Shown: positions 571 through 16,899, numbered from the stretch's first letter. The stretch is DNA of 64,000 nt from an uncultured delta proteobacterium (GCA_963696385.1 CAVOKF010000003.1:64001-128000), one strand, 5' to 3'. Translations and numbers: made by a program. Notes: generated by a model not told the origin, from the sequence alone.

Positions 571-643
571 GCGGGACTAGCTCAGTTGGTAGAGCGTCGG
601 CTTCCCAAGCCGAAGGTCGCGGGTTCGAGACCCGTGTCCCGCT
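571..643 (+). tRNA. tRNA-Gly (anticodon CCC), CCA not encoded
   Basis: Full cloverleaf: acceptor GCGGGAC/GTCCCGC, D-arm GCTC/GAGC, anticodon arm TCGGC-TTCCCAA-GCCGA, T-arm GCGGG-TTCGAGA-CCCGT. Confidence 0.97.
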
Positions 644-1901
644 CTGAATGATTCCGTGAGGTTGCGAGTAACTCTGCAGGTACTTGACGAGCATCATCGG
701 TCACCGCTGGTGACAGAAGACGGGCCGCCAACCCCGGATCGATATCCGGCAACGCGGCGGCGGGTACCGGCCTCGCGGCGTCGAGCTCGCGCACGTACCC
801 CATGTGGACCTTCGGGTCGGCGTGGCTCGCGAGCGTCATTGCCGTCTGCATGTTGACCCCTGCCCCGGCCAGCGCCCGATTGTATGCGCGCCTCAGGCTG
901 TGGAAGTTCATCCGACGAGACACCGGGGTGTCCCAGTAAAGCGGATCCGCCGGGTTCGGCTTGCCCTTCAACGGAGGGAGCCGCACCACCCCGGCTCGGA
1001 AGAAGTCGCGGCGCAGACGGTTCGCGAACGAGGTGCCGCGGGACTTCTTGTCCTTCCCTGCCCTCGGCCCTCGACGCACCGGGAACACCGGTCCGGCCGT
1101 CGGACCCCCTGCCCTCGCCCACCATGCTCGAAGGAACGGCCGGAGCACTTCGGGCACTTCGAGGTGCTGTATCTCGCGAGTCTTGGACCGCGCGATCGTG
1201 CACCGGGCGAACTCAACCGTATCTATCATCGTCCAGTCCCAACGGATGAGCTCTGACGTCCGCATGCCGCCTTCGGTGCGGGCGACGAACGCGAGCAGCT
1301 TCAATTCGAGGTCGCAGTCCGGCGCGGCCAGGAACTTGCCGACCTCGGCATCCGTCGGACTTACGAACGGGCGCCGATCTCTCTTGAGGCCTTCGGGCAG
1401 TTCGACGTCTTCGGCGGGGTTTGCAGCGATGAGCTTTTCGATCTTGGCGCGCTTGAAGTCGCGGCGCATCACCGCGCGGATCTTGTGTACCGTCTCGTGT
1501 CCTAGCCCGTCGTCGCGTGCCTGCTCGAGAGCCCGACGAACATCGTCATCCGTGATGCGCGTAAGCTGTACGTCACCGATGACGCGGTAGATGTACCGAA
1601 CGCGATTGTTCTGTTCGTCCCGCGCCATCACCACGCCCGCCGCATTGCGCCGCTCGTGTCGGTCCGTCGTGTACGATCGGTATGTCTCCGCGACCTCGGT
1701 CTTGGCTTGCGCGTCGGCAACGTACTCCCCCGCTTCGATCATCGCGACGAGTCGGGCAAGCTTGCGCTTCGCCGTTTGCCGATCCTTCGTGTTCAGCGCC
1801 ATCCATCGGCGTTCGTCGGTGCCGTCTGGTCGTTTGACCCATACGCGGGCGTAGAAACCGCTCGGCTTCGCGATGATCGTGCCTGTTCTTTTGATAGCCA
1901 T
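582..1901 (-). CDS. int: Tyrosine recombinase/phage integrase
   Basis: N-terminal arm-binding-like region, GMRTSEL (R), FHSLRR (HxxR), ASHADPKVHMGY (H...Y); C-terminus reads through the att core. Confidence 0.95.
   Translation of the reverse strand: MAIKRTGTIIAKPSGFYARVWVKRPDGTDERRWMALNTKDRQTAKRKLARLVAMIEAGEYVADAQAKTEVAETYRSYTTDRHERRNAAGVVMARDEQNNRVRYIYRVIGDVQLTRITDDDVRRALEQARDDGLGHETVHKIRAVMRRDFKRAKIEKLIAANPAEDVELPEGLKRDRRPFVSPTDAEVGKFLAAPDCDLELKLLAFVARTEGGMRTSELIRWDWTMIDTVEFARCTIARSKTREIQHLEVPEVLRPFLRAWWARAGGPTAGPVFPVRRGPRAGKDKKSRGTSFANRLRRDFFRAGVVRLPPLKGKPNPADPLYWDTPVSRRMNFHSLRRAYNRALAGAGVNMQTAMTLASHADPKVHMGYVRELDAARPVPAAALPDIDPGLAARLLSPAVTDDARQVPAELLATSRNHSERDTGLEPATFGLGSRRSTN
601..644 (+). 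repeat. att core (attL), 44-bp direct repeat copy 1
   Basis: CTTCCCAAGCC...GTCCCGCTC is identical to 16856-16899; it is the 3' half of the tRNA from the anticodon loop. Confidence 0.95.
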
Positions 1902-1975
1902 CGTTCGCCTGCCTCTTCAGAACCGGGTGGCGCCCGGTTGACGCCCCTTGCGGGGCGTTTCGGCTATTCATGCGC

Positions 1976-2119
1976 TCACGGCTTGGTCTTGAGTCTGGCG
2001 ATCTCGTCTTCGAGCTTTGCGATCTGCTTTTTTAGCGTGTCGATTTCGCGATCCTTTGCAGAGAGCAGCGCGGCGTAATCATCGCGCTGGCGTTTTATCT
2101 GTTCCGGTGTCTCAGCCAT
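1976..2119 (-). CDS. Small coiled-coil hypothetical protein (47 aa)
   Basis: Own translation MAETPEQIKRQRDDYAALLSAKDREIDTLKKQIAKLEDEIARLKTKP, with GGAGG RBS. Confidence 0.6.
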   Translation of the reverse strand: MAETPEQIKRQRDDYAALLSAKDREIDTLKKQIAKLEDEIARLKTKP

Positions 2120-2187
2120 CTTGGCCTCCCTCGTCCCGCATCACGTGCGGACGTGATCCTGATCGGATCACGTTTCGGCCTGGGACG

Positions 2188-2526
2188 CTATCGTCGCCGA
2201 AACACCCCGCTTTCCCGTGGAATGACCTCGCCCGTCGAATCGACAACCGCGTCGGACTGGCACGAGTGTCGCGGGCACGGCGACGGTTTCGCCCACGGGA
2301 GAGCGAGAGATGCGGCGACGTCGTGAGTCAAAACGACCCCGAATGCCGCGACGGCGTGTCCGCAAAATCGGCAGTGGTATTCGCTTGGCGCGAACGCGTT
2401 GCGCTCGACAGCTTGCGCCTTGACGAGTCGGCGCACACGTTGGTCGACAAGATGGCGCCAGAGTTCCGGCGAGCCCTTGAAGGGGGGACGTGGAAAGTAT
2501 CGGCGAAGGATTCGGGCGGCGCTCAT
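2188..2526 (-). CDS. Hypothetical protein with CxxC motif
   Basis: ATGA-coupled to upstream ORF; HCRFCG and CPRHSC. Confidence 0.5.
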   Translation of the reverse strand: MSAARILRRYFPRPPFKGSPELWRHLVDQRVRRLVKAQAVERNAFAPSEYHCRFCGHAVAAFGVVLTHDVAASLALPWAKPSPCPRHSCQSDAVVDSTGEVIPRESGVFRRR

Positions 2527-2804
2527 CGGCGGCCCCGTAGCTCGTGCTCGGCGAGGATGTCCTCGTCACGCACTTCGATGGGCTCGCGGTCGAGCACGTC
2601 GACTCGAACCGCAGCGGTGAACGAGGTGAAGCTCTTCTTTTTCGCGTGATAGAAGCGGGCCAAGTGCAAGAGCGCGCAGAAGGCCTGATCGACCGTGCGC
2701 GCATCGGCCGGCGTCATGTCGTCGTCGGCATCGATCAGGGCATCGAGGGCCGCATGCAGGTTTTCGCGGATTCTGTTTTTTAGGGGAGTGGCTAAACTGG
2801 GCAC
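2523..2804 (-). CDS. Hypothetical protein
   Basis: Protein-like composition, RBS, coupled to next gene. Confidence 0.6.
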   Translation of the reverse strand: MPSLATPLKNRIRENLHAALDALIDADDDMTPADARTVDQAFCALLHLARFYHAKKKSFTSFTAAVRVDVLDREPIEVRDEDILAEHELRGRR

Positions 2805-2932
2805 GTTCGTTTCCCTTTCGGTTGCGGACCACGCTCCCGGCGGTTACAGCCGCGCGGGAGCATTCGTTGCGGGCTCGGTGCCCGCCCCGCGCCCGGCCCC
2901 CCAGCGGGAGCGGCACGAGGCGAGCGGCGAGG

Positions 2933-3139
2933 TCAACGCGTGAGGTCCTGGGCCAACTCCCTGATTCTCTCAACCTCTCCGAGAGCCATCACAATCGTGT
3001 CGGGGTCGGGGCTGCAGGCCAGCCGCTCGGACGCGAGCTCGGCCAGCCGGGCGATACGCGTCGCGACGACGAGCGTTCGCGAGGTTACCGGCTCGCGCCG
3101 GACAGTGGGGGCCTCGTCCGGCCAGGGGGCGGCGCTCAC
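2933..3139 (-). CDS. Small hypothetical protein
   Basis: GTGA overlap with RHH gene stop. Confidence 0.55.
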   Translation of the reverse strand: MSAAPWPDEAPTVRREPVTSRTLVVATRIARLAELASERLACSPDPDTIVMALGEVERIRELAQDLTR

Positions 3140-3360
3140 TTGCGGCCCTTCTTCGCGTCGGAAGCGAGCACGTCGAGCCCGCGGCGGATGGCCATGCGGA
3201 GCACGTCTGCCCGCGTGACCGACAGGCCAGGCTCGGACTTGGCTAGCGCAATTTGCTCGGCTTCCTCAAGCCACTCGGCGGAAAGGGCGATCGTTACTTG
3301 CCCGTCTTTGTTCGGATCCTTCGGTCTCGGCATCGTCGGCGAGTTCGCCATGTTGTTCAC
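3136..3360 (-). CDS. Ribbon-helix-helix (CopG/Arc-like) regulator
   Basis: QVTIALSAEWLEEAEQIA...TRADVLRMAIRRGL pattern (beta strand, helix, helix). Confidence 0.75.
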   Translation of the reverse strand: MNNMANSPTMPRPKDPNKDGQVTIALSAEWLEEAEQIALAKSEPGLSVTRADVLRMAIRRGLDVLASDAKKGRK

Positions 3361-3369
3361 CTCTCAGCC

Positions 3370-3408
3370 ACCGTAGCAAGTTGCTAACGCCGTGGCAAGG
3401 TGTATAAC
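3370..3408. promoter_or_regulatory. Overlapping divergent promoters with palindromic operator
   Basis: Minus: TTGCCA-N17-TACGGT (3398-3370); plus: TTGCTA-N16-TATAAC (3381-3408); palindrome TAGCAA-G-TTGCTA 3374-3386. Confidence 0.6.
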
Positions 3409-3431
3409 TCTTGGGAAAGGTGGTGGACCGT

Positions 3432-3992
3432 ATGAAAATGATAACGATGCTGGTTTCAGCGCTGGCGCTTGCTGCGTGCGGAGGGGCGCCGGAAGCGCCC
3501 GAAAGCATGGCCGCCCCGTCCTCTTCGTCCAGCAGCGCGTCGAGCGCCGAGGTCGCGGACGGCGCCGGGAGCCCGGACGACGCCGGGAGCCCGGCTGCGA
3601 GCTCGAGTTCGTCGTCGGCGATGTCGGCCCCGACCAGCAGCGACGATGACGCTGGCGAGACCGTCGAGGCCGCGGCCGTCGTGATCGACGCTGGCGCCCC
3701 GCCGTCGTATACCCCGGACGCGGCATGCCATGATCTGGCCTGCGAAGGGAACGTGGGGCCGCCATCCGATGCCTCGCCCTATGTGACGACGTGCCTAAAT
3801 CAGGCGGACGGGTGCGACGGGTGCGTGAATCTCTCGACGACAGGATGTACCAGTTCAGGCGGCACGATCGCGGGCACTGACGTTCCCGTATATTCCTGCC
3901 CGATCGGTACGGTGTGCTATCCGGGTACACTAAATCGTGGCGGCGCTGGTAACACGGTGTCGTGCACGTTCACTAACATCTGCCCAATGTGA
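3432..3992 (+). CDS. Cys-rich lipoprotein (moron-like cargo)
   Basis: Lipobox LAAC, Ser-rich linker, Cys-rich C-domain; opposite strand with own promoter and terminator. Confidence 0.8.
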   Translation: MKMITMLVSALALAACGGAPEAPESMAAPSSSSSSASSAEVADGAGSPDDAGSPAASSSSSSAMSAPTSSDDDAGETVEAAAVVIDAGAPPSYTPDAACHDLACEGNVGPPSDASPYVTTCLNQADGCDGCVNLSTTGCTSSGGTIAGTDVPVYSCPIGTVCYPGTLNRGGAGNTVSCTFTNICPM

Positions 3993-3999
3993 AATGGGC

Positions 4000-4033
4000 G
4001 AAACCCCGGGAAGCTTTCGCCGCTCGGGGTTTC
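4000..4033. terminator. Hairpin/intrinsic terminator
   Basis: GAAACCCCG...CGGGGTTTC stem just after the lipoprotein stop, between convergent genes. Confidence 0.65.
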
Positions 4034-4377
4034 TGGCTCGGCTGTCGCCCAGCTGGACCTTGGAGCTGTTTGGGGCCGCTTACGGTTCGCCCGGGCCGTT
4101 TATAACGTCCGCCCTTCGACGTGAATAGGTATACTGCCTATCGCCACTCCGTCAAGTGGGCGATATACGATTTTGCGCAGTGGCCTGTTTACGCGCTGCG
4201 CAGACTACGAAGTAGCTCTAGCAATTTGGCTTCCGCCGAAAGCGCCCGATCGCGCCATGTGCCAGCCGGACCCGCCCAGTAGCTCGCCACGCGCTCGGGG
4301 ACTGGGCAAGCCTCGGGCTGCGCACCTTGCGCCATCTCAAAACGAGTCAATCCGACGGGGCGATGCGCAGCCATTGG

Positions 4378-4899
4378 CTAATTCAGCTGATTCATGAAAA
4401 TGCACTGCCACGCTAGCTGATCGCTGCCGGTGGTCGCGACTAGGAGGGTGACGGTCTGGCCCGAGATACTGAAACCGGAGTACCCGTTCACCGTCTCCGT
4501 ATTGCTGTCGAACGCCTGCGAGTAGGCGTTCGTTACCGTGCCGCCGACGTCGACGAACCCCATCACCTGGCGGAACGAGCCCGCGCCGTCCGAGGGGTTC
4601 GTGATGTCACGGAAGGTGCACAACTGCTGCACGTGCCACAGGTGGCCCGACGTCAGAGTCACCGCCATCGTCGTCGAGGTGAATCCCGGCGGCACGACGC
4701 TCAATCCCTGCCACCCGGTGGTCCACGTCACGCCCATTTGCCCCGCGCTCTCCGAGCCGAGCCAATAGCCGGGGGAGAGCAGGAAACTGCCCGCCTGGGC
4801 AAACGATGGGCTGGCCGACGGCTGCGTCTGCGCGAGGGCGACGCCAGCGACGAGCGCGAGCGCGACGAGAATGAGTGACGGGGAAAACCTGTGTTGCAT
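4378..4899 (-). CDS. Secreted beta-rich hypothetical protein
   Basis: Signal peptide ending ALA-Q; beta-strand-rich mature part. Confidence 0.7.
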   Translation of the reverse strand: MQHRFSPSLILVALALVAGVALAQTQPSASPSFAQAGSFLLSPGYWLGSESAGQMGVTWTTGWQGLSVVPPGFTSTTMAVTLTSGHLWHVQQLCTFRDITNPSDGAGSFRQVMGFVDVGGTVTNAYSQAFDSNTETVNGYSGFSISGQTVTLLVATTGSDQLAWQCIFMNQLN

Positions 4900-4909
4900 T
4901 GAGTACTCC

Positions 4910-6124
4910 TCAGCTCAGTTGAGAAAGCTGGCCCGAGATCAGCGAGAAGCGCACGGTGCCGACGGTGTCGTTGAAGCAGATCGCGGCCTGGACGGGGGAC
5001 ATCGCGAGGTTCGGCGAGTTAGCGCCGTTAGGTGTAATGTACACTTGACTTGGATACCATGATTGGCCGTCGGGGCTCCAAACTATGACGCCGGTGTCAG
5101 GTGTGCTTGCCGCGACGAGACCAAGCCAAAGCGAGCCGCATCCGCAAAGGTATTTGATTGCGGCCTGGCCGCTCGAAGTGGAAAAGGCATATACATACGT
5201 GTTGCCCGTCTCGGACACGTAGTAATTCCGAACGTTGCCGCCTCCCGACGGCTGCGTAACCAGCAAAAATTGCCCTCCGGGGTTTGTCGTAGTCGTTCCC
5301 CAGGCGAGCGCGATCGGAATGTCCGTGCCGATCGTGCTGGAGATAGACAGCGTCGTGGTCGTTCCGCCAGTGGCCATGGTCACGCTGCATACGCCACTCG
5401 CGCCGATGTAAACCGCGGCGCATGTCGTCGCGTTCGCCGCGACTACGGCATTCGTGAGCGATAGACCGGTCACTTCAGCGGTATGGCTAGAGTTCGTCAG
5501 GTAGAAGATCTCAGACCCAGCCGCCGAGCCGGACACGAGCACGGCCATGGCGAAGGATTGGCCGCTCGGGCACGCGACCGGGAATGAAGTGGCGGCATTG
5601 AAGGCGCCCATGCCCGTTTGCACCGCGGCAGGCGTAATCGTCTCGACGTAGCCGAGCCCGCCACTGATACGAGTCATGTAGCTGCAGCCGGAGTTATCGC
5701 AGGCGATGCCAGCAACCGTGCCAGTGGGAGTGAACCCCGTCCCGAAATTCACGGTCGTTGTCGAATCCGTGCCCGTGAGCGTCGAAAAGAAATTGAACGC
5801 GCTCGAATTGTATGTGTTCGCGCAAACCCATAAATTGAGCGTGGCATTCCATGCCATGGCGTTCAACGTGTAGGCGCCGGATTCGGCCACGAACTGAGGT
5901 TGCCAATTCTGCGCGATCGTCGAGTCACCGCCGGCGATCTGGACCGCGGCGACATTGCTGAATGCCAAATTCAATTCGAAGTTGAGCGCGGGGGCGGCTG
6001 CGCCAGTGCCGGGCGTGAAATAGGATGCGGACGGCGCGATCTTCGTGGGGCCGCCCGACCATGGTGAGGATCCAGCGGGGTAGTCAAGGGCAGTCGACCA
6101 GGTACCAATAAGCGGCTGTCCCAT
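4910..6124 (-). CDS. Putative tail fibre/receptor-binding protein
   Basis: Gly/Thr/Ser/Ala-rich; N-terminal TKIAP...PG...ALNFELN anchor-like motif; Asp-box-like WSPDGQSW. Confidence 0.55.
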   Translation of the reverse strand: MGQPLIGTWSTALDYPAGSSPWSGGPTKIAPSASYFTPGTGAAAPALNFELNLAFSNVAAVQIAGGDSTIAQNWQPQFVAESGAYTLNAMAWNATLNLWVCANTYNSSAFNFFSTLTGTDSTTTVNFGTGFTPTGTVAGIACDNSGCSYMTRISGGLGYVETITPAAVQTGMGAFNAATSFPVACPSGQSFAMAVLVSGSAAGSEIFYLTNSSHTAEVTGLSLTNAVVAANATTCAAVYIGASGVCSVTMATGGTTTTLSISSTIGTDIPIALAWGTTTTNPGGQFLLVTQPSGGGNVRNYYVSETGNTYVYAFSTSSGQAAIKYLCGCGSLWLGLVAASTPDTGVIVWSPDGQSWYPSQVYITPNGANSPNLAMSPVQAAICFNDTVGTVRFSLISGQLSQLS

Positions 6125-6301
6125 TTACTTACTCCAAACGCTTTCGTTCCAATTCGACTGATTCCAGATCGCGGGTGGCGCCGGTGCCGGAGCGATATCC
6201 ACCGAGGCCGAGACCTCGCCGGTTAGCTCGAATTTAGCCGTGGCTTCCGCGGTCGGGACGGGCACGGTCGCGTCAATCGAACAGACAAATTCCTGGCTCA
6301 T
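6125..6301 (-). CDS. Small virion-type protein (58 aa)
   Basis: Own translation MSQEFVCSIDATVPVP...AIWNQSNWNESVWSK; overlaps the upstream stop and abuts the downstream start. Confidence 0.55.
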   Translation of the reverse strand: MSQEFVCSIDATVPVPTAEATAKFELTGEVSASVDIAPAPAPPAIWNQSNWNESVWSK

Positions 6302-6624
6302 TTGCTTTTCTCCACAGGTGTCCCGGCGAGCGTGTTGGCGCCGGTTCGGATTCTCATTCCGCCGAAAGTGATTTCGGCATTCTGTCCTAGGTCTGCAACC
6401 TCATTCCAAAATAGCCATGCGTAAATATTTCGCCTGTCGCCTGGTCGCAGCGCCTTGAGCGATCGGAGGACGTCGGCGGCGTCCTTGCGGAACGTGAGTG
6501 CGTCGCGCCGGGTCTCCGCGTTCGCTCGAAATTCCTCGTCGGTCGGAGTCGGCGCCGTCGGCTCCGGAACAACGGGTGTGCCGGTCAAAGCGTCGCTACG
6601 GTTGAATACGGCTCCCGATGTCAT
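6298..6624 (-). CDS. Hypothetical protein
   Basis: In the coupled minus-strand operon; GAGG RBS. Confidence 0.6.
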   Translation of the reverse strand: MTSGAVFNRSDALTGTPVVPEPTAPTPTDEEFRANAETRRDALTFRKDAADVLRSLKALRPGDRRNIYAWLFWNEVADLGQNAEITFGGMRIRTGANTLAGTPVEKSK

Positions 6625-6628
6625 TGGC

Positions 6629-7375
6629 TCATTCACCTCGCGTCCGACCCATTGCACGCACCTTCGGTTTGCCGACGGGCGTGCGCCAGGCGTCCTTTGC
6701 TCGCGCGATCATGGCGTCGCGCGCGTCGGTCGTCGCCGAGTCGCCCTCTCCGAACGTGTCAGGCGTGGACATACCCCCGCCGAAAGAGCCCGACGCCTCG
6801 CCCTGGTTCCCCCCGCCGAACGCGCTCCGTCCGTGCTCGGTCTGCGCTCGCTGGACGCGCGGAGCATTCTGCCGGGCTGATTCTCCGTACGGTCCGTCGT
6901 TGGGCGGGGTGCTCTCGTTTTTGCCCCTTGACCCCCCGGGAAACGAGCCGTCGTGCCCCCGTGCCGGACGATATCCGTACTGGGCAAGTTCGAGGCCCCG
7001 TTCGAATTTCGCTTGCAGAGCGGCGAAACCCGCTGCGCGCTGTTCGTCGGCCGAACTGAGCGTTTCCTCTTGTGTAGAGGTGTTCGTCTGGACGCCGCTC
7101 TCCGTCAGCATCGCGTCGGCGCGCGACTCGGCGCCGCCGGCGTAGATGAGATCCATCGGATCCAAGAATCGCGGCGCGGCGTCCGAGCGAAGCTGGCCCT
7201 TCTTGACGGCCACTCCGTAGACGCCCTCGATGTATGCAGCCGACGCGTTCGCTGGGATCTCGTAGCCGATCCGCGCGAGTTCTTTGCGACGAACGTCGGC
7301 GACGCCCCTCTCGTATTCGGGGTTGGGTGCCGGGTCTCTCGAGTTCGATTCATATCGCATTCCCATGGCGTTCAC
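6629..7375 (-). CDS. Hypothetical protein, possibly scaffold-like
   Basis: GTGA-coupled; low-complexity linker; SAAYIEGVY and DARDAMIARAKDAW segments. Confidence 0.6.
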   Translation of the reverse strand: MNAMGMRYESNSRDPAPNPEYERGVADVRRKELARIGYEIPANASAAYIEGVYGVAVKKGQLRSDAAPRFLDPMDLIYAGGAESRADAMLTESGVQTNTSTQEETLSSADEQRAAGFAALQAKFERGLELAQYGYRPARGHDGSFPGGSRGKNESTPPNDGPYGESARQNAPRVQRAQTEHGRSAFGGGNQGEASGSFGGGMSTPDTFGEGDSATTDARDAMIARAKDAWRTPVGKPKVRAMGRTRGE

Positions 7376-8793
7376 TTACCTTTCTTCGAAATTAGTGCCC
7401 CAAGTTCCACGATTCCCGCCGCTGCCGCCTCTGCGGCCCACGAGCTCAACTCGTCTTTCGACGTATTTCCGCTGTACGGCCGATCCACAGGCCTGGTCAC
7501 TCGGAGGTCGATCTTGTCGATCTGCTGCATATTCGGATCCTGCAAGATCCGGATCGGCGGATGCGTTGTCCCGATTGCGCCCGCCTGCACAGGAATCTGC
7601 CGATGTGCCGACATGCGCTCTTGATCCAAGAGCTCGGACCAGATGAGAGCGACTGCAGCCGGGGGCGAGATCAGATATCCACGGACGCAAACCTCGACGA
7701 TATGTCTCGGCATCCACCCGAGCGCCGTCCTTACTTGGTACAGGTATGTCGCCCACTCCCGGACGAACTCGCGCGCCGCATCCGTGTGTTGCTTGCTGAA
7801 CGCCTCGACGGGGCCAGTCTTCCGACCGGGTACATGTCGCTGGAGAATGCGGCACACAAGACCGTATGATTCGGTGTCGGGCAATCCGACGGACGCCAGC
7901 ATTTGCGCGTTGGCCGTGATGACGTGCTGAGGCGCCAAGATCTCGCCAACCGCGAAGACAACGCGCGGCAAAGGCAAACCCGGTATGGCCCGAAACACGA
8001 TCGTGCCGCCGATCATCGTCGCGGTAGCGAGCTCGCGCGGAATGGTCACGCCCGGTTCGTCGAGGATGCGGATGCCGACGAAATCGAGATCGCGAAGCGT
8101 GCGGCTTTCGATTCGGTTTGCCTCGGTGAAAGCGCGCTGGGCCGCCTGCGCCTCCGCTTCGATGCGCTCGTTTTCGGCCTTCTGCGAGGCCTCTAGCTCG
8201 CGAGCACGAGAGCCCGGAGCGACGAGCCGCTTGCCTGCCACGACCGGCCGCCCGATCACCTGAGCGCAGTGCGAGAAAGAGGCACCGAGGGATCGCATGG
8301 CCGACACCGCGAAGAGGTCGAACACGCGATCGGCGAACGTGTACTTGATCAAACCGCTGACCTCGGGCCGATGGCGGAGAATTTCGCGCGCCGCCGCGTC
8401 GGCTTCGTTGAGATGCTCCTCGAACACTTCGGTCCCGTCGTCGTCGATGCCGATCGATTCGATGGCGAGCCCGTACAGCTCCAGGCAGAGCAAAGCCGTG
8501 GGGCGAGCGGCGCCGTTGATCGGCTCAAGTCGCGCGATCTCGGTGTCACCCTGACGGATGACGATCGGAGCGTCGAGGGGGGCGCACCAAGGCACGAGCG
8601 AGCCGTTTTCGAGCAACGGGTTGACATCGCGCACCCGGACGTCGTCGACGATGACGAACCGAGCGCACGGCGGGGGCGCCGGCGGGCGATGGCGCTCCGC
8701 GGCTTCGCGAACGATTCGGAGGGCGTAATCGCCGCCGTGCTGGACAATCCCGTTTTGAACGCGATCGGGGACGTGGGGAATGCTGGTCGTCAT
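7372..8793 (-). CDS. Hypothetical protein (~473 aa)
   Basis: Long ORF, AAGAGG RBS, central coiled coil; family not recognised. Confidence 0.75.
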   Translation of the reverse strand: MTTSIPHVPDRVQNGIVQHGGDYALRIVREAAERHRPPAPPPCARFVIVDDVRVRDVNPLLENGSLVPWCAPLDAPIVIRQGDTEIARLEPINGAARPTALLCLELYGLAIESIGIDDDGTEVFEEHLNEADAAAREILRHRPEVSGLIKYTFADRVFDLFAVSAMRSLGASFSHCAQVIGRPVVAGKRLVAPGSRARELEASQKAENERIEAEAQAAQRAFTEANRIESRTLRDLDFVGIRILDEPGVTIPRELATATMIGGTIVFRAIPGLPLPRVVFAVGEILAPQHVITANAQMLASVGLPDTESYGLVCRILQRHVPGRKTGPVEAFSKQHTDAAREFVREWATYLYQVRTALGWMPRHIVEVCVRGYLISPPAAVALIWSELLDQERMSAHRQIPVQAGAIGTTHPPIRILQDPNMQQIDKIDLRVTRPVDRPYSGNTSKDELSSWAAEAAAAGIVELGALISKKGK

Positions 8794-8821
8794 TTTCGTT
8801 GGCCTCTTGTAGTGTGTATCG

Positions 8822-9160
8822 TCAGGAATTTTTTGCACGGAATTGCGGCACCATTGCCCGAAATGAATCCGAACTGTTCGCGCTGAACTCGATGCCGCCG
8901 ACCTTGCCATACCTGGCCGTCATCGGATTGCGACTCACTGTCGCGATCTCGACGCGCCCGGCGGGGTCGCGCGTGACCGAAAGGCACGGTTCTTCGCTGT
9001 CGTCCATCCCTTGCCGCAGGTCGCGTACGAAGTCCCGCGTCTGCCGCATCGTAGCCTGCAACGCGTCGCCGATGACTTCGTCAATCAACTGATCGTATCG
9101 GTCCTCGCAGAGTGCCCGGCGCTGCGGTATGTACGGATTTCGCCCTCCCTTTAGCCTCAT
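8822..9160 (-). CDS. Hypothetical protein
   Basis: ATGA overlap with terL stop. Confidence 0.6.
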   Translation of the reverse strand: MRLKGGRNPYIPQRRALCEDRYDQLIDEVIGDALQATMRQTRDFVRDLRQGMDDSEEPCLSVTRDPAGRVEIATVSRNPMTARYGKVGGIEFSANSSDSFRAMVPQFRAKNS

Positions 9161-10809
9161 CGCGCCACCCCCCAAGTGTTCCCGTAGGTCGTCTCAAAGA
9201 ACCAGCGAGCCCGATGCGGGAATCCCTGATCCTTGCACGCTGGATCAATCACGATGTTTCCGATCATGTCGCCCACCTTCCATCGCGCAATGCCGTTGAC
9301 ATAGTCGGCGTCCACGTACGTGATCGTGCCGCCGCTCTCCGTGAGTGTGTACGTGTCTTTCTTGAGGCCGACTTTTCGGCGCCAGCCAATGAGCTCCGCG
9401 AGCACATTCGTGTAGTGTTCGGTGGCCTGCTGATAAACGCCCTGATCGAATACGCGTCCGCCACGAGCATCCACCGCGGACATCGCTCGGACCCAACTTG
9501 CTTCGCCGTTCGAAGCCCGCGAGGCGCAGAGCGCGATGCTCTGTGCGTGGTCGGAGTGTCGCCCCCCCTGGCGTTCGAGCTCGATACTGAATCCGCCCTG
9601 CTTCGATACCAACTTGCGAACTCCGAGTAGATCGGAGCGGAGGATCGGCACGTCCGGAATCTCGATCGTGCCGTCCGTGAACCGGCGCTTGAGGGAATCG
9701 AACATCTGCACTTTCCCCGGTTGCGTCATCGCTTCCTGCACGAGCTCGATGCCGTGCCGATCCGCATGGGACTTCAGAGCATCGAAGGACCACTGATCCT
9801 GTACGAGTTCGTCGATGCCGTACGACTTGAGGATTACCGCGATTTCGCCCATCGTGGCGTCGCTGTCCAAGGCACCACCCTTCGGTGCGCGCCAGCCCTG
9901 CACACGCACGATCTGGACACTGCCGGACTCGAGTTCGCGACCGATCGCTAGACTCCACTCGTTGCTGCGCGTCGCCGGATCTTGTGCGGCAAAATATCGA
10001 CCACCTGGGACGTGCGGAATCGAGGCTTGGCCTCTGTGCGTCGCGGCCAGCAAGAGCGATTCCGAGAACATCGAAAGCATGTCCCCGGCGAACGGGATTG
10101 CGCCGTATTCACGCAGAAACGTGTCCTCGTCGGGCTCAAGCTCGCGGCATTCTTGCTCGGTGAGACTCGGGCGCGCGATCCATGTCGCGGCTTGCGTGAC
10201 AACTTGGAAATCGGTGTCGCCCGCGTCGATTGCCTTGGCGTGCGCATCGTTGCGGCCCATCGGACTCGACGAAAGGAAGATCTTCGCATTCGGTTGGCCG
10301 GCCATCGTTGGGCGAAGGCTCGCGAGCACCTCCGTCGCCGGGTTTGAGCCGGTGTCGACGTCCTTCCATTTGGCAACCTCGTCGCAAATCGCGCATATGC
10401 AGGTGAAGCCCGAGACGCCGGAGATCGAGGCGGCGAACGTTTTGAAGGCGACGGGGCGCGACTCGAGCTCGATGCCGCCGTCGCACGGCTTGTACTTCAC
10501 GCCGAGCGCCGCAAGGATCGCCTTCACCGTGCGGAGGCGTTCGGCGGACTGGTCGCGCGATACCGATATGATCGCGACAACGCCGATGTCACCCGCGGGA
10601 ATCTTGTGATCTCCGTACAAGCCTTCGAGGACGCCAACCCGGCAAAGACTCGACGACTTGCCGCCACGGCGACCTACGCGCCCCGCCCATTGCCGTTTCC
10701 CCGATGCGTAGAACGATGCGAGGGTATTCTTCCACCAATCGCTCATCGGGTGGAAGTCCGCGCTCGCGAGGCGCCGTTCGAGGGGGGTGAGATGGTCGAG
10801 GACGCTCAT
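9157..10809 (-). CDS. terL: Terminase large subunit
   Basis: Walker A VGRRGGKS, Walker B ICDEVA, coupling motif SSSP, nuclease AQDPA...QDQW...HSDHA. Confidence 0.88.
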   Translation of the reverse strand: MSVLDHLTPLERRLASADFHPMSDWWKNTLASFYASGKRQWAGRVGRRGGKSSSLCRVGVLEGLYGDHKIPAGDIGVVAIISVSRDQSAERLRTVKAILAALGVKYKPCDGGIELESRPVAFKTFAASISGVSGFTCICAICDEVAKWKDVDTGSNPATEVLASLRPTMAGQPNAKIFLSSSPMGRNDAHAKAIDAGDTDFQVVTQAATWIARPSLTEQECRELEPDEDTFLREYGAIPFAGDMLSMFSESLLLAATHRGQASIPHVPGGRYFAAQDPATRSNEWSLAIGRELESGSVQIVRVQGWRAPKGGALDSDATMGEIAVILKSYGIDELVQDQWSFDALKSHADRHGIELVQEAMTQPGKVQMFDSLKRRFTDGTIEIPDVPILRSDLLGVRKLVSKQGGFSIELERQGGRHSDHAQSIALCASRASNGEASWVRAMSAVDARGGRVFDQGVYQQATEHYTNVLAELIGWRRKVGLKKDTYTLTESGGTITYVDADYVNGIARWKVGDMIGNIVIDPACKDQGFPHRARWFFETTYGNTWGVAR

Positions 10810-11378
10810 GTTTCGACCTTGTCGCCGGGCAAGCGCCATGCAGCGAGCGGATCCACCGGACCCTTCGGGCGCGCTTGCGCCTCGCGCGCGCAAAGCTCGT
10901 GCGCGGCCAGTAAGTGCTGGCGCGATGTCTCGCCCAGTCGGGCGCTCCGCATGGCGAGCTCGGGGTCACCCGTCGAAGCAGCGAGGTCGGAGAAGTACCG
11001 CGACCAGGCCAGCGCGAGCGCAGCCGACGCAACGACCGACGATGGGCCGGGGCCGCACACACCCCCGCCCACGGTGCGGGCGAGCTCGGCACACTGCGTT
11101 CGTCGGAAACTCGACGCTGCCGCCTTGTACTGACGGAATGCAGCGTCGTCGGGCAGGGTCGTCAAGCCGAGACGCGACGAAAGACGGCTCTTGCCGGCCA
11201 GCGCTTTTCCGCCAGCGCGCGCCAACGAGTTGCCGCGGGCAAACCTCCCCGCCTTGCCGCGGTCCGTCGGGCTAGCCTGACGGGCTTCCGCGGGCACACC
11301 GTCCGGCAGCTCATCGGGCGGCAAAACCTCGATCCGGGGCGTGCCTGCGCCCGCGCCGTGGCCACTCCTTATTGCCAT
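10806..11378 (-). CDS. Putative terminase small subunit
   Basis: ATGA-coupled directly upstream of terL; RGKAGRFARGN motif like the GxFxxGN N-termini of TerS. Confidence 0.6.
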   Translation of the reverse strand: MAIRSGHGAGAGTPRIEVLPPDELPDGVPAEARQASPTDRGKAGRFARGNSLARAGGKALAGKSRLSSRLGLTTLPDDAAFRQYKAAASSFRRTQCAELARTVGGGVCGPGPSSVVASAALALAWSRYFSDLAASTGDPELAMRSARLGETSRQHLLAAHELCAREAQARPKGPVDPLAAWRLPGDKVET

Positions 11379-11402
11379 GGAGTCCCCACGGATGTGCTAG
11401 GA

Positions 11403-11612: not shown

Positions 11613-11614
11613 AC

Positions 11615-11794: not shown

Positions 11795-11985
11795 GTCCCC
11801 TCGTAAAAGCCATCGGGTCGCAGGGTCGCTTTCCAGCGCGCCCCGATGCCGAGCCGGTTGCCGGCCGCGAAGTGCCCACCGGGGGTACGCCCTTGCCGCG
11901 GGTTCGCGTCGGTTTCGCTGGACGTAGAATCGCTCGCGCGCACCAGCGTCGGCCGCGTCTTGCCGTGAGAGCGTTCGATGGTCAT
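11704..11985 (-). CDS. TerS-like paralog/fragment
   Basis: MTIERSHG...RTPGGHFAAGNRLG resembles the N-terminus of 10806-11378; ATGA-coupled. Confidence 0.45.
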   Translation of the reverse strand: MTIERSHGKTRPTLVRASDSTSSETDANPRQGRTPGGHFAAGNRLGIGARWKATLRPDGFYEGTYFDADRIGLAWLVDVRDAFASVAALEVDP

Positions 11986-12365
11986 GTGGCGCCCTCGGCG
12001 GCAAACAGGGCGCGCAAGTCGGTCGGCCACTGCGGCGTACAGTCCTCAGGCCGGAACGGCGCCGCGTAATCGGGCAACCTCAGGATCCGCGGGGTGACCT
12101 CGGCGACTAGCGCCTGCCACTGAGGGCCGTGATCCGCCCATGGATCTACCGCGTGGCTCAGCTCGTGGACGAGAACGTCGCAGAATCGAATGCGGTCGAA
12201 GCGCAGCGTGCGCGGGGCGAGCCAAAGCGTGTCGCCGTCGCAGCACCCCTCGAGGGTTGGATCCACGTCATCGGGCAGACCGATCACAACCTGCGGAACG
12301 CGGTCGAGCTCAGGAAAGAAGCGAGCGGCGAGGCGCTCGACGAGGGACTGGAGATTAGTGATCAT
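11982..12365 (-). CDS. SprT-like zinc metallopeptidase
   Basis: DVLVHELSHAV...DHGPQW (HExxH plus HGxxW). Confidence 0.75.
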   Translation of the reverse strand: MITNLQSLVERLAARFFPELDRVPQVVIGLPDDVDPTLEGCCDGDTLWLAPRTLRFDRIRFCDVLVHELSHAVDPWADHGPQWQALVAEVTPRILRLPDYAAPFRPEDCTPQWPTDLRALFAAEGAT

Positions 12366-12978
12366 GGCCACCCCCGCGCGGTGCTTGGCCCTGGTGACGC
12401 TCGGCGGGGCGCCATTGCAGGCCGTGGTCCTGCTCGAGTCGCTCGGATTCCTCGAGAACGAGCCTCACGATCGCCTCGCGCCGCGCAGCCTCGGGCAGTA
12501 CGTGGAACGCGGCCCGCAGTCGCGGCCAGTACTCTCCACCGGCCCAGCGAGGGCCTCGGCTGTCGACGCCGGGAAACGTCGCCATCACGGCCTGGGCGGC
12601 GGCAAGGATCGCGGTCTCAACTTGATCGCCGCGAACCAGCGGGCGTGAATCGAAGCTCTCAGGATCGCGCTGCTTGCGCGGCTTCGGCGGCGCGGCTTCG
12701 CGGACCGCATCCCGCTCGGCCTGGCGCCGCGCCGCAATAGCAGCCACGAGCTCGGGGTCGGCACGGACGGCGTCGCTCAAGGTGCATCGTGCGACCCCTA
12801 GCGCGCTGGCCGCGGCCTCCAGCGAAGGTGACTCAAGCACAACCGCTTTGCGCTCGGGCGTAAGAAGGAAGGTCCGAGGGTCGACGCGCAAGGCAGAGCC
12901 AGCGGCCTTCGCTGCGGCGAGCCGTGCGGCGAGGGCAGGATCGGCAGCGGCGGCGCGGGCCACGGCCGCACGGCTCAC
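12355..12978 (-). CDS. Ala-rich hypothetical protein with possible HTH
   Basis: SLEAAASALGVARCTLSDAV HTH-like segment. Confidence 0.55.
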   Translation of the reverse strand: MSRAAVARAAAADPALAARLAAAKAAGSALRVDPRTFLLTPERKAVVLESPSLEAAASALGVARCTLSDAVRADPELVAAIAARRQAERDAVREAAPPKPRKQRDPESFDSRPLVRGDQVETAILAAAQAVMATFPGVDSRGPRWAGGEYWPRLRAAFHVLPEAARREAIVRLVLEESERLEQDHGLQWRPAERHQGQAPRGGGHDH

Positions 12979-13059
12979 GCCGGACGCGTCGATGGCGCGC
13001 GTCGGCGGAACACCGCTCGCGATAGCCGATAAGAATCGCCTCGATGGTGTCGGCCGCGA

Positions 13060-13694: not shown

Positions 13695-13793
13695 TTCCCG
13701 ATGCTCCTTAAGGAGCGCATCGGGTAATCGGGTAATCCTTCACCCGATGGCATCGGGAAAGAATCGGGTAAACATCGGGTAATCGGGTAATCG
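13695..13793. repeat. Iteron-like cluster (putative replication origin)
   Basis: ATCGGGTA at 13719, 13727, 13763, 13774, 13782, a variant at 13752, inverted copies, and palindrome GCTCCTTAAGGAGC; directly after the helicase. Confidence 0.7.
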
Positions 13794-13794
13794 C

Positions 13795-15048
13795 TCACGG
13801 TGCCTCCGGCGGGGCCGCGTGGCTGAGGTAGAGGCGTCGTCCGTTGCCACGGCCGGGCACCTTTCGTTGAACGACCTCGCCGTTGTCGCAGAGCGTGTTG
13901 ACGGAAGCGCGCACGAGCAGGGCGTCGAGTCCGACGATGGCGCGAACGGCGTCCGTGCCGGCGATGCCGGGGTGCGAGCGAATGCACTCGCGAACCGCTT
14001 CGACCGCTTTGGCCAAGCGGGCATCGCCAGTCGGCTTCGCGGCGGTCAGCTCTGCGCGGTCGATGTGGCAGACGACGAGACCCCATTTCGGGTCGCCGTC
14101 GGCCTGTACGTCATCGATACGCAAGCCAAAGTCTGCGACGGCTTGACCGAGCGCCCGGTCCTTTTCGTGCGTCACGAGGGAGAGCGCTTCGCCTTTCTTC
14201 TTTGATTGGACGAACATGCTCTGAAACTCGTCGAGGATGCCGGACGAGCCGCGGGCCATTTCCTTGCGCGTCCGCTGCGAGCCTTCGTTCGGCGTCTTGC
14301 CCGCGTGGTGAATAAGCTCGACGGCGGCGCCGCTCGAATCGGAAGCGCTCGAAAGGGCGCCGATGTACCCGCGCACCTGCGACGAGTTCTCGTCGAGTCC
14401 ACCGAGCATCGGGCGGAGGGAATCGCAGGTAACGAGGCGCACGCCGGCGAACGCTCTACGGAATTGGTCGGCCGCCTGGTCGGACGTAAGCCGAAGGTCC
14501 GGCAGAATGGCGACGCGGATGAATCCATCAGATATGAGTTCGCGGAGATCATCGTCGATGATGCCGAGTCCGCGGGCGAGGCGATGAATCGTTTTCTTCG
14601 TCTGGCGCCGACCCATCTCATAATCAAGATGAAGCCATGGCCCTCGATGAACGTTCCATGTCCCCCATAGGGGCTTGCCCGTGGCGACGGCGAGGCCCAT
14701 CGAGCAAATCGATATGGTCTTGCCGGACCAGGCTTGACCAATCCAACCGTTGACGGGGCCGGCCCCGATTCCGAGCGCCGGAATGGTCAGGCTCTCGACG
14801 TTCTCCGCCGCGAAGAATTCGTCAGCGTTCAGACAACGCACGGGGATTGACGGCTGCGATACGCGTTCCAACTGCTCGCGCGTCGCGTGCGGATAGTGGC
14901 CATTCGCCTCGTCGACGATCGCCCGACGTTCCGCGGCTTGTTCCGCCTCGTCATCGGCAAAGAAGCCGTCGACATCTTCGGGCGGCAACGGCATCACGAT
15001 GCGCTCCTCAGCGAGGCCAGCGGTGTAGTGGGAGCGCTCATGCGTCAC
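13795..15048 (-). CDS. AAA_25 / RepA-type SF4 replicative helicase
   Basis: Walker A GQAWSGKT, HLDYEMG, Walker B VTCDSL, LIHHAGK, RGSSGI; start uncertain. Confidence 0.85.
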   Translation of the reverse strand: MTHERSHYTAGLAEERIVMPLPPEDVDGFFADDEAEQAAERRAIVDEANGHYPHATREQLERVSQPSIPVRCLNADEFFAAENVESLTIPALGIGAGPVNGWIGQAWSGKTISICSMGLAVATGKPLWGTWNVHRGPWLHLDYEMGRRQTKKTIHRLARGLGIIDDDLRELISDGFIRVAILPDLRLTSDQAADQFRRAFAGVRLVTCDSLRPMLGGLDENSSQVRGYIGALSSASDSSGAAVELIHHAGKTPNEGSQRTRKEMARGSSGILDEFQSMFVQSKKKGEALSLVTHEKDRALGQAVADFGLRIDDVQADGDPKWGLVVCHIDRAELTAAKPTGDARLAKAVEAVRECIRSHPGIAGTDAVRAIVGLDALLVRASVNTLCDNGEVVQRKVPGRGNGRRLYLSHAAPPEAP

Positions 15049-15382
15049 CTCCGCGACCCAACGTGGGGCAATCGACCCACGCGACTTGCGCCCAACCATC
15101 GATTAGGATGAGCACTGGATAGTTGCGACCGTCGTCTCGCGGGTCGCTGTCGATCTCCGTGAGAATCTCGTCCAGCCCGTCCAGGTGTAGCCCTGCCGAA
15201 TGCAGACAAGGCTGGATGATATGTCGATATGTGAGTTTCGGTGGCCGACCCTCGACCGCGAGAACAATACAAGTTTTCGCGGTGCAATCGTGCGGCGCTC
15301 GCATGATCGAGCCACTGGCCGTCCTCATTAGGCGATCCGCGCGGCGCTCAAGTTGTCGCTTGACGTGCCTAGACGGCGTCAT
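15038..15382 (-). CDS. Hypothetical protein
   Basis: ATGA-coupled in the early operon. Confidence 0.55.
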   Translation of the reverse strand: MTPSRHVKRQLERRADRLMRTASGSIMRAPHDCTAKTCIVLAVEGRPPKLTYRHIIQPCLHSAGLHLDGLDEILTEIDSDPRDDGRNYPVLILIDGWAQVAWVDCPTLGRGGDA

Positions 15383-15648
15383 CGGCGCACCGACCTGTAG
15401 ATTTTGGTTCCGTCCGGACACTCGCAAACGAACTCTGTATCGTCGCTCGGGTCATCGGGTAATTCGCCAATGATCGCCAAGTCGTTGTCGTCGAACGGCG
15501 GACCCTTCGCGAGCAGGGCATCGCGGCAGAGCACAAGAGCGCGAGCCATTCGAAGTTCCTCGATGGGGCGCAATACGTGCGCCGGCATCGGCCGCCCCTC
15601 GATTGCGGCGCGCTCGGCGGCGTCGAATTGCTCGACGTGCGCCGTCAT
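15379..15648 (-). CDS. Hypothetical protein
   Basis: ATGA-coupled on both sides. Confidence 0.6.
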   Translation of the reverse strand: MTAHVEQFDAAERAAIEGRPMPAHVLRPIEELRMARALVLCRDALLAKGPPFDDNDLAIIGELPDDPSDDTEFVCECPDGTKIYRSVRR

Positions 15649-15935
15649 TTGCTACCTCGCGCCGCCAAGAACTCGGGCAGTTCACTCGCCTTGATCTCGA
15701 CGTGCTTCGACTTCGGGGGTACCAGCATTTGCTGGACTGGCGCATGACCAGCGGCCCACTCGGCTTCGCGAGAGAGCAAGGCGAGCTCGCATAGCTTCAG
15801 CTCGGCAGTGGCCCTTTCGAACAGGCTTCGCGCCCGCGCCAGGTGGACACCGGCAGCGGGTTCGGTCGCCGTCGTGCTCGCGCCAAGATGCGCGCGGACC
15901 GCGGCGAACAAGTCGATGTCGACAGGCGCGGTCAT
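15645..15935 (-). CDS. Hypothetical protein
   Basis: ATGA-coupled on both sides. Confidence 0.6.
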   Translation of the reverse strand: MTAPVDIDLFAAVRAHLGASTTATEPAAGVHLARARSLFERATAELKLCELALLSREAEWAAGHAPVQQMLVPPKSKHVEIKASELPEFLAARGSK

Positions 15936-16303
15936 CGCCGTACCAACCCCGCCGCAGCGGCGATATCGTCAACACAGATCTCGACTTCACTCCGTGGCGC
16001 CCGCGTCGGCCTTTTGCCTCGCCGTGCGAGCCACGCCTTGCAGGCTTCGAAGTCGTAGCGTCTTGCGTCGCCAACATGGGCGGCGACAGGAAGACCCTCG
16101 CGCGTCAGTCGATCGACAGTGGACGCACTCACCCCGAGCACGAGCGCGACTTCTTTTTTTGACAGCAGCCGGTCTGCCGGAATGGACTCTGTGGTGGGCG
16201 CCATCGCCGATCGGATGGCGGCGACCACGTCGGGGCGGCGCAACGCATCCACAAGTGCGTCGCCGAGCAGACGAGCCCCGAGTGTGACTAGTTCGTCGCT
16301 CAC
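15932..16303 (-). CDS. Excisionase/AlpA-like HTH protein
   Basis: LLSKKEVALVLGVSASTVDRLTREGLP...RRYDFEACKAWL (MerR-superfamily winged HTH). Confidence 0.85.
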   Translation of the reverse strand: MSDELVTLGARLLGDALVDALRRPDVVAAIRSAMAPTTESIPADRLLSKKEVALVLGVSASTVDRLTREGLPVAAHVGDARRYDFEACKAWLARRGKRPTRAPRSEVEICVDDIAAAAGLVRR

Positions 16304-16506
16304 GGCGCCACCTGACGGACGAAGGTCCGCGACCGGATCAGCGCCAGTGTCCCGCGGCGAATCGGTAACCCGCCGACTGCTTTGCCGATCGCCTCTCGAC
16401 CAACGCCACACCACCGCGCAACCTCGCTGACCGACGACGCGAGGATCACGCGTCGGAGCTCATCTCGCTCATGCTCGGAGAGCGCATCGGTCGCCGGGTG
16501 ACGCAT
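16300..16506 (-). CDS. Small Cro-like HTH protein
   Basis: SVSEVARWCGVGREAIGKAVGG; first gene of the operon, GTGA-coupled. Confidence 0.6.
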   Translation of the reverse strand: MRHPATDALSEHERDELRRVILASSVSEVARWCGVGREAIGKAVGGLPIRRGTLALIRSRTFVRQVAP

Positions 16507-16855
16507 GCGGCAAACGTAGGCGCCCCGAATTTGCAACGGGACGCTGGCCCGCTATAGGGCCTCATGTTTTGACCTCTCCGGTTACAATTCGTAACTGGAT
16601 TAGATCGTCGCTAACATGCGGGAATCATTGCGTATGGCTCCGCACCCGATGGGGTACATCATGGGTACATCATGAGAGCCAAGTGGCATTTACAACCTCG
16701 GCCGCATCAAGGCCTCGGCATATCGGCGTCAGTCACCAGCCGGTGCCCCGTCACCACTCGTCACACTGAACTACTCGCAGATTCGCGCGCCGCACGTGGG
16801 CCACGCTGACGTCGCTTTGCTTGACGTTGCGGCACCTTGCAAACTTACGAAGGGC

Positions 16856-16899
16856 CTTCCCAAGCCGAAGGTCGCGGGTTCGAGACCCGTGTCCCGCTC
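16856..16899 (+). repeat. att core (attR), tRNA-Gly 3' fragment
   Basis: Identical to 601-644. Confidence 0.95.

Follow-up and report, generated by a model that had tools for sequence, protein, structure and literature searches.

The stretch of DNA considered here (the window, 64,000 nucleotides of an uncultured delta proteobacterium, a soil myxobacterium, GCA_963696385.1 CAVOKF010000003.1:64001-128000; G000:C3:64001-128000 in our numbering) contains a mobile island that is a candidate phage satellite. The island occupies window positions 601-16899 (16,255 bp start-to-start) and has as its integration target a tRNA-Gly(CCC) gene predicted by ARAGORN (571..644, + strand). The left attachment (att) repeat (attL, 601..644) is the 3' end of this tRNA gene, and a repeat search found its counterpart at the right end (attR, 16856..16899). 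The two copies are identical over 44 nt inside a 61-nt alignment, and a 30-nt core of the repeat occurs twice in the window and in none of 100 shuffles. At the tRNA end is the gene for a tyrosine integrase of 439 aa (582..1901, - strand; PF00589 7.9e-08, PF22022, phrog_1 3.2e-27), whose 3' end extends into the tRNA and att sequence.

A preliminary description of this DNA had noted perfect att repeats, an intact integrase and translationally coupled genes, all of which hold up. The island genes are on the minus strand with one exception, 4-nt ATGA/GTGA overlaps join the genes at 7 of 20 junctions, and nine late genes form an operon of ~7 kb with intergenic distances of -4 to 28 nt. The integrase, the regulator and the replication module all lie inside att-bounded DNA of the ~10-20 kb class, as in the classical definition of phage-inducible chromosomal islands (PICIs). 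GC content is 0.60-0.70 throughout and does not distinguish the island from its flanks, and a scan for promoters and terminators gave counts at chance level. Just beyond attR is a 165-aa open reading frame (ORF; 16771-17268, - strand), residues 25-76 of which resemble the C-terminal end of an integrase (phrog_1 5.6e-07; PF00589 below cut-off), and next to it are about three tandem copies of a 12-nt repeat (16941-16983). The ORF may be left over from an element that used this tRNA site before.

Packaging and replication genes

The island encodes a terminase large subunit (TerL) of 550 aa (9157..10809, - strand), which matches PHROG terminase families at 5.1e-11 (phrog_2) and 2.3e-07. We found 506 homologues, in which the Walker A (RVGRRGGKS) and Walker B (CDE) motifs are invariant, and an alignment of 44 sequences has 44 invariant columns, including G46, R47, R48, G50, K51, S52, D143 and E144. 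The C-terminal region of the family profile (329-456) aligns to the nuclease domains 5tge and 5m1f (3e-3 to 2e-2), while Pfam TerL_ATPase is matched by 6 of the 44 family members and Terminase_6N by three. Judged from these comparisons, the island TerL is a genuine large terminase, with both its ATPase and its nuclease half supported. The gene before it, ATGA-coupled to TerL, encodes a 190-aa protein (10806..11378, - strand) that has no Pfam, PHROG or NCBIfam match and that we call TerS-like by position. Of the terminase pair in the preliminary description, the large subunit is thus borne out by family, nuclease and ATPase matches, whereas the small subunit is placed by its position.

When TerL was compared by tblastn with 50,697 phage records, the sole match was Virus Rctr16k (L024, KX853514.1; 23.6% identity), a partial viral genome of 16.7 kb from a bioreactor enrichment. 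Besides an integrase and a DnaC-like loader, it encodes a terminase-like protein, a protease (phrog_328) and a 'tail protein' that resembles a tape measure; neither a capsid nor a portal is annotated. We considered Rctr16k as a close analogue of the island and rejected it.

The replication module centers on an AAA_25 (RepA/DnaB-like) replicative helicase (13795..15099, - strand; PF13481 8.4e-20, phrog_906, phrog_2597). Beside this gene is an iteron cluster (13718..13798), a putative origin that holds five exact copies of TCGGGTAA within 71 nt (13720-13790) and variants of it; the window as a whole has eight copies, versus 0.88 expected. Helicase and iterons are therefore as the preliminary description had them, and the xis-like gene that it named also holds up: the corresponding HTH_17/excisionase-like DNA-binding protein (15932..16414, - strand) matches phrog_66 at 9.3e-11, with sub-threshold scores for HTH_17 (25.6 bits, cut-off 27) and TIGR01764 (23.2, cut-off 28.8). 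Outside the island, the genome has three more AAA_25 helicase homologues, at C8:186-1304 (56%), C2:96158-97246 (35%) and C6:85522-86496 (36%), which may be markers of other integrative elements.

Genes downstream of the terminase

Profile searches agree with the preliminary description that the island has no recognizable capsid or portal. Capsid, portal, protease, head-tail connector, tail, tail-tube and lysis families had no match among 27 ORFs searched with Pfam and PHROGs, nor had capsid, portal and protease families among 20 searched with NCBIfam, and the ORFs that follow TerL (112, 473, 248, 119, 58, 404 and 173 aa) matched no family in any of the three collections.

The gene in the portal position encodes a 473-aa protein (7372..8793, - strand) and is separated from TerL by a 112-aa ORF (8822..9160, - strand). 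It is followed by the gene for a 248-aa protein (6629..7375, - strand; likely start 7366), for which just five homologues were found and whose second half is of low complexity, rich in Gly, Ser and acidic residues. In lambda-like phages, TerL is followed by W, the portal and a protease or scaffold, an arrangement that the order TerS-TerL-small ORF-473 aa-248 aa mirrors. The island could then be a capsid-forming element, similar to the capsid-forming PICIs (cf-PICIs), or a miniature autonomous temperate virus, with the 473-aa protein as portal, the 248-aa protein as scaffold and the 404-aa protein (see below) or another one as shell, each too divergent to be recognized. The scaffold-like half of the 248-aa protein is in keeping with this idea, as are a DUF2213/phrog_530 prohead protease encoded directly after the 473-aa homologue in two relatives and element sizes of 16.1-16.7 kb, which fit a small capsid. 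We nevertheless consider it unlikely, although it is the strongest of the rival readings, in part because no lysis genes were recognized by Pfam or PHROGs and in part because of the 473-aa protein itself.

This protein belongs to a small family (47 relatives at E<=1e-3 among 1.84 billion representatives), and its AlphaFold2 model, built with 44 relatives, is confident (predicted local distance difference test, pLDDT, 89.4; predicted template modeling score, pTM, 0.65). Foldseek returned no PDB match for the model at E<=1e-3. The best of 48,161 chains in VIA-align was a KaiA-type helical bundle over residues 335-461 (Z 5.8, in the noise range), and the same bundle headed the Foldseek list when it was re-ranked with VIA (Z 5.6), with no portal or HK97 fold. 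Across 44 family members Pfam gave nothing of substance, a sequence profile search of the PDB gave noise and Atlas gave no usable match. Comparison by hhalign gave probabilities below 1%, both with the portal (A3) and capsid (A4) profiles of TerL-related phages and with the portal and capsid of phiEt88. On the negatives from Pfam, Foldseek, VIA and hhalign we rejected a portal or capsid identity for the protein.

Other searches with this family were also negative. Nothing was found at E<=1 by tblastn of the 473-aa protein against the 50,697 phage records, or in scans of IMG/VR and metagenomes with the 473-aa protein, the 248-aa protein or their relative P0003. A Prim-Pol function was considered and rejected: the best match in BFVD had E 3.5e-3 and TMq 0.18, the NrS-1 and pRN1 prim-pols gave Z 2.1-2.3, and we dropped the lead because the acidic residues are never invariant in the family. 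A Joint Genome Institute (JGI) metagenome contig of element size (16,232 bp) carries both P0003 (56% to the 473-aa protein) and P0051 (76% to the 248-aa protein). The family is of interest in its own right, as a confidently predicted fold without a match that is tied to a packaging enzyme.

Apart from this protein, a single ORF has the size of a capsid gene. It encodes a 404-aa Thr/Ser/Gly-rich protein, mostly beta by prediction (4910..6124, - strand), and the fibre-like character that the preliminary description gave it was not confirmed. The protein has no family match, and language-model features are a weak pointer to phage propeller and tail-fibre proteins (top score 0.87, a lead only). 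A model from four sequences is unusable (pLDDT 32.5), and to that extent its fold is left open to a capsid-forming interpretation. Comparison with the capsid family of TerL-related phages (A4) by hhalign, however, gave a probability below 1%, and a search of 301 family genomes found only its paralogue in the own genome and, in a single further genome, two shorter proteins, which would be an unusual distribution for a capsid gene. All four proteins have the N-terminal ~65 aa in common and diverge toward their C-termini. This pattern would be more typical of a receptor-binding protein, or another one at the surface, than of a shell. The preliminary description had allowed that some ORF might hide an HK97 capsid or portal fold; the model of the 473-aa protein matched neither in the structure searches.

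Three smaller genes complete the late operon on the minus strand. Two of these are a 119-aa ORF (6298..6657; likely start 6624) and a 58-aa ORF (6125..6301). The last gene of the operon encodes a 173-aa protein (4378..4899) with an N-terminal signal-peptide-like stretch and no homologue elsewhere in the genome.

Related elements and phages

A second element was found in the same genome by tblastn of the island proteins (element 2, G000:C3:464953-481133, loci L011/L012). It is integrated at a tRNA-Arg(CCT) gene, the 5' part of which is covered by its 40-nt att repeat, measures 16,141 bp start-to-start and has an integrase ORF that reads through the att and tRNA sequence (602 aa). Its replication genes differ from those of the window element and include an ERCC4-type nuclease and a D5-like primase-helicase (phrog_2478 2.7e-120). 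The late proteins of the two elements are 27% identical for TerL, 46% for the TerS-like protein, 38% for the 112-aa, 58% for the 473-aa, 81% for the 248-aa, 88% for the 119-aa, 63% for the 58-aa and 37% for the 404-aa protein. By these comparisons, element 2 is a mosaic paralogue of the window island.

Homologues of the 473-aa protein are present in 5 of 60 related genomes, all of them from the same genus (5 of 30). Two of the same-genus elements are att-bounded, at 16,219 bp (tRNA-Glu) and 16,661 bp (tRNA-Thr). What follows the 473-aa homologue varies. In two relatives, as noted, it is a prohead protease; elsewhere the genes encode a Dit-like protein, a Pam3-gp18-like plug, a baseplate hub, a small fibre protein or a tape-measure-like protein. 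There were no capsid, portal or tail-tube matches among these genes. In one same-genus relative (L013, ~1600-8700) the element is followed or interrupted by IS66-family genes (DDE_Tnp_IS66 1.8e-70, TnpB_IS66), and the integrase is on the helicase side, unlike in the window element.

The family is wider than the genus. When species-representative genomes were scanned for the TerS-like protein, 39 loci came up, most of them from metagenome-assembled genomes of Polyangiaceae/Myxococcales and one from Sorangium cellulosum So ce56. According to hmmsearch of the six-frame ORFs of these loci, the TerL family is encoded in 32 of them, and two of the seven without it end at the match. The 473-aa family occurs in three, which apparently duplicate relatives already counted. 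Neither the portal profile (A3) nor the capsid profile (A4) was found by hmmsearch in any of the 39, and nothing of capsid size is conserved with TerL across them, which argues further against a capsid-forming element. A PHROG scan of 60 proteins encoded downstream of TerL in 12 loci detected terminal integrases in four loci, ClpP-type prohead proteases in two and tape-measure-like proteins in two. A baseplate hub, an endolysin-like protein, a domain like that of internal virion proteins and a RecE/RecT fusion each turned up once, and there was no whole capsid or portal. The So ce56 locus (L098, NC_010162.1:5656802-5677284) has a TerL match at E 2.5e-132, no portal or capsid in the six downstream ORFs scanned and no tRNA or att repeat in the 20 kb of the locus. 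So ce56 is cultivable, so experiments on the family are possible.

A tRNA-derived direct repeat bounds 7 of the 39 loci. Five of these carry TerL and range from 13,587 to 15,291 bp; the two without TerL measure 8,071 and 15,247 bp. Together with the window element, element 2 and the two same-genus elements, nine att-bounded elements with TerL, at different tRNA genes, fall within 13.6-16.7 kb.

These sizes bear on the possibility that the elements are defective prophages, that is, small temperate phages that have lost their head and tail blocks and no longer move. Some features of the relatives speak for this. In one relative (L077:12237-12935), TerL is directly followed by a 108-aa N-terminal fragment of a major head protein (phrog_617 1.1e-11) and a 115-aa protease fragment, which hints that the family originated from full phages via loss of head genes. 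IS66 genes follow or interrupt one same-genus element, tail-tip genes are scattered among relatives without a tube, and the two att-bounded relatives without TerL include one of just 8.1 kb. In contrast, the window element has perfect att repeats, a full-length integrase and an open, translationally coupled late operon. The genome holds two copies at different tRNAs, with late proteins 37-88% identical and free of stop codons. Independent decay is disfavored because it would not be expected to yield one size class for all nine TerL-bearing elements. Decay is, in our view, the least probable of the explanations considered here, and a one-off decayed prophage is disfavored in particular, since the paralogue in the same genome and the relatives in other genomes keep the reduced plan and size.

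Full phages from which such a remnant might derive, an outcome that the preliminary description had flagged as fatal to its proposal, did not turn up: no full-length relative with TerL identity above 56% was found, and the nearest full phages share TerL at 34-56% identity and little else. These are 30 contigs in IMG/VR, in which TerL and a few small ORFs precede a ~650-aa portal (phrog_156/332), a ~350-aa protein and a ~410-aa protein, the latter with a match to a major head protein (phrog_14242) in one contig. One contig (L030), whose TerL is 56% identical to that of the window, also shares an AAA_25-type helicase at 34% identity.

Of the 50 TerLs in a tree, 26 belong to loci that had a portal or capsid hit and 21 to loci that had no such hit; the other 3 are from IMG/VR loci where none was seen. 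The TerLs of elements and phages interleave on this tree, and its well-supported branches force at least five switches between the two. The window TerL forms a trio with that of a same-genus element and that of the L030 phage contig (SH-aLRT 99).

A possible satellite family and its place among known systems

We suggest that the island is a member of an undescribed family of phage satellites of the Polyangiaceae, elements of 13.6-16.7 kb that integrate at tRNA genes, bring a complete terminase and no shell, and use the procapsids of a helper. In our estimation the chances of this reading are about even. We favor it because the mobility and replication modules are complete, the motor is conserved and intact, the size class is tight, no shell gene is conserved in the family and the TerLs track those of phages. 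The narrow size range suggests a constraint set by capsid capacity.

In this scenario, a helper phage would infect the cell or be induced, and the HTH/excisionase-like protein together with the integrase would excise the island. The AAA_25 helicase would replicate it from the TCGGGTAA iterons and the late operon would be switched on. The island's own TerS-like protein and TerL would then recognize and cut element DNA and pump it through the portal of procapsids made of helper proteins. Docking of this TerL on a helper portal would work because the element TerL stays close to, and is repeatedly exchanged with, the TerLs of portal-bearing phages. The variable genes after TerL could modify the borrowed particle. 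Here these would be the 473-aa protein, the 248-, 119- and 58-aa proteins, the 404-aa protein, with its conserved N-terminus and variable C-terminus, and the putatively secreted 173-aa protein; in relatives, the prohead protease, the Dit-like protein, the baseplate hub or plug and the tape-measure-like proteins may serve this end. Head assembly or size, the tail tip and host range are possible targets.

A more specific version is a 'terminase-only' class of satellites in the Polyangiaceae. These would encode no shell and would carry a TerS-TerL motor that is exchanged time and again with the TerLs of helper phages, which would keep it able to dock on the helper portal. The 473-aa protein, with a new fold, would act at the packaging vertex, tail-tip or receptor-binding parts would re-aim the helper tail, and a redirected small capsid, or else a fixed fraction of the helper headful, would dictate the 16.1-16.7 kb of this subfamily. 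We hold this version to be tentative, with odds clearly short of even.

Several observations weigh against a satellite that relies on helper procapsids. A terminase normally co-evolves with its portal, and we found no experimental precedent in the literature for a satellite with TerL and without a portal. TerS is unproven, its assignment coming from its conserved ATGA-coupled place before TerL. The 404-, 248-, 119-, 112- and 58-aa proteins could include an unrecognized capsid or connector. The TerL tree is the product of a quick maximum-likelihood search, and its 'element' label means no portal or capsid profile hit in the locus, so that it is not independent of the feature in question. A phylum-wide search of 401 genomes for the 473-aa family, at a depth of four candidates scored per genome, found it in the own genome only. 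The tail-tip genes of relatives, without tube or capsid, are hard to explain and might mark decay. Finally, the own genome (96.4% complete) has no match to Phage_capsid PF05065, Phage_portal PF04860, TerL_ATPase PF03354, Terminase_6N PF03237 or the A3 and A4 profiles, and no joint of attL and attR, from a circle or an empty site, was seen in contigs of four soil-metagenome runs at depth 1-8.

As for the helper, if there is one, it would be external or too divergent for these queries; the own genome has one weak match to the tape-measure family PF10145 (E 0.0076, below cut-off). The public sequencing runs in which the stretch is listed, four low-depth soil metagenomes from a single study and none of them RNA, are available as contigs and offer no evidence either way on excision or expression. 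Loose ends of these contigs at 635 and 16903 have no match in the flank or at the opposite end of the element.

The remaining genes of the island are mostly small. Between the TerS-like gene and the helicase, on the minus strand, are a 129-aa protein with an HExxH motif (11982..12371; weak SprT-like match, PF10263 E 0.0065, below cut-off) and a 207-aa Ala-rich protein (12355..12978), 71% identical in element 2. Two coupled small ORFs of 89 and 96 aa, known from translation (15379..15935, - strand), lie between the helicase and the excisionase-like gene. At the right end, a 78-aa ORF (16300..16536, - strand; likely start 16506) with a homologue in the locus of one relative is a putative regulator. 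Toward the left end are four small ORFs of 112, 93, 68 and 71 aa (2188..3351, - strand), arranged as two ATGA/GTGA-coupled pairs and without a family match in Pfam, PHROGs or NCBIfam; element 2 encodes a homologue of the 68-aa ORF, and homologues of the 71-aa ORF are present in a same-genus element and in an IMG/VR contig. The sole + strand ORF (3432..3992) encodes a predicted lipoprotein, with a start of MKMITMLVSALALAAC and a lipobox LAAC seen by eye in the translation, a Ser-rich linker and a Cys-rich C-terminus. From these features it is possibly a moron or an exclusion candidate.

Variable cargo of this kind, including the lipoprotein and the small ORFs, is typical of accessory regions, and it raises the question of whether the terminase-like pair serves mainly in interference with phages, as a competitor for procapsids or a nuclease that cuts phage DNA, while the island itself would travel in particles rarely or not at all. 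Known satellites are described as blocking helper packaging, and neither a helper nor a packaged form was seen in the own genome or the low-depth contigs. A fixed defense locus, however, would have no need of replication from iterons, of an excisionase-like gene or of a size class, and the ATPase and nuclease halves of TerL are both conserved (44 invariant columns in 44 sequences). We regard a mainly defensive role as improbable, if slightly less so than decay.

As the preliminary description proposed, the island fits none of the PICIs, cf-PICIs, P4 or the PICI-like elements (PLE) as these are defined: it has a full terminase, with TerS by position, and no capsid, portal, protease or connector that we could find. 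A search of the literature (supplements not covered) found nothing relevant on satellites with TerL and without a capsid, or on satellites of Myxococcota or Sorangium; in the available part of a 2026 preprint on myxobacterial viruses, satellites are named in the references only. Marine virion-encapsidated integrative mobilizable elements (VEIMEs) are reported to carry TerS only (PMC9618062).

The cf-PICIs, with a reported median of 14 kb (PMC10085698), must by definition encode a capsid, protease, portal, head-tail adaptor and connector of their own and may not carry tail genes (PMC10085698, PMC10690885). The island resembles them as a small integrase-bounded element with its own regulator and replication module and with TerS(-like) and TerL genes in a late operon. 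It differs in that no head genes were found by profile and in that its relatives carry tail-tip genes. Head-tail adaptor and connector families, as well as tail and holin families, had no Pfam or PHROGs match in the island, although the 404-aa protein may be tail-related. The Streptomyces satellites MulchRoom and MiniFlayer are described as combining a TerS+TerL module with a portal, major capsid, scaffold and head-tail adaptor, and MiniFlayer as having a tail-fibre or adsorption module as well (PMC10690885). The TerS+TerL module is common to these satellites and the island, and the fibre module of MiniFlayer parallels the suspected role of the 404-aa protein. The island, however, has no recognized head module and no sequence relation to either.

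Classical PICIs and Staphylococcus aureus pathogenicity islands (SaPIs) share with the island the modules for integration, excision and replication and the logic of redirecting helper packaging to island DNA in helper-made capsids. According to descriptions of SaPI-type islands, these bring TerS (or Rpp) and use the TerL of the helper, whereas the present family brings its own TerL, and no cpm- or ppi-like genes were recognized. P4 and the Pseudomonas P4-like element AH14b, which is described as 16.8 kb long and without a terminase (PMC4936722), are similar in their tRNA-type integration, their own primase or helicase, their size and their lack of shell genes, and are described as dependent on helper capsids (PMC4936722). 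They use the helper terminase, unlike the island, in which no counterpart of the P4 capsid remodellers Sid and Psu was found. The P4 core genes psu, sid, delta, epsilon and alpha-primase had no match in the 27 ORFs among the general Pfam and PHROG families.

Podovirus-like IMG/VR contigs (L030, L033, L044) have the TerL family in common with the island at 34-56% identity, but their ~650-aa portal, ~350-aa protein and ~410-aa capsid protein have no match in it. Compared with autonomous Caudoviricetes, TerL is the only one of TerL, portal, HK97 capsid, tail and lysis genes that profiles found. Little is known of myxobacterial phages, and no other satellite family of myxobacteria would have been proposed before this one. 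The satellites known so far follow one of two strategies: P4, SaPI-type PICIs and PLE borrow the TerL of the helper, and cf-PICIs and MulchRoom/MiniFlayer build a whole head. If our reading is correct, a complete motor without a shell would be a third satellite strategy, and it would raise the question of how a foreign TerL gains access to the portal of a helper.

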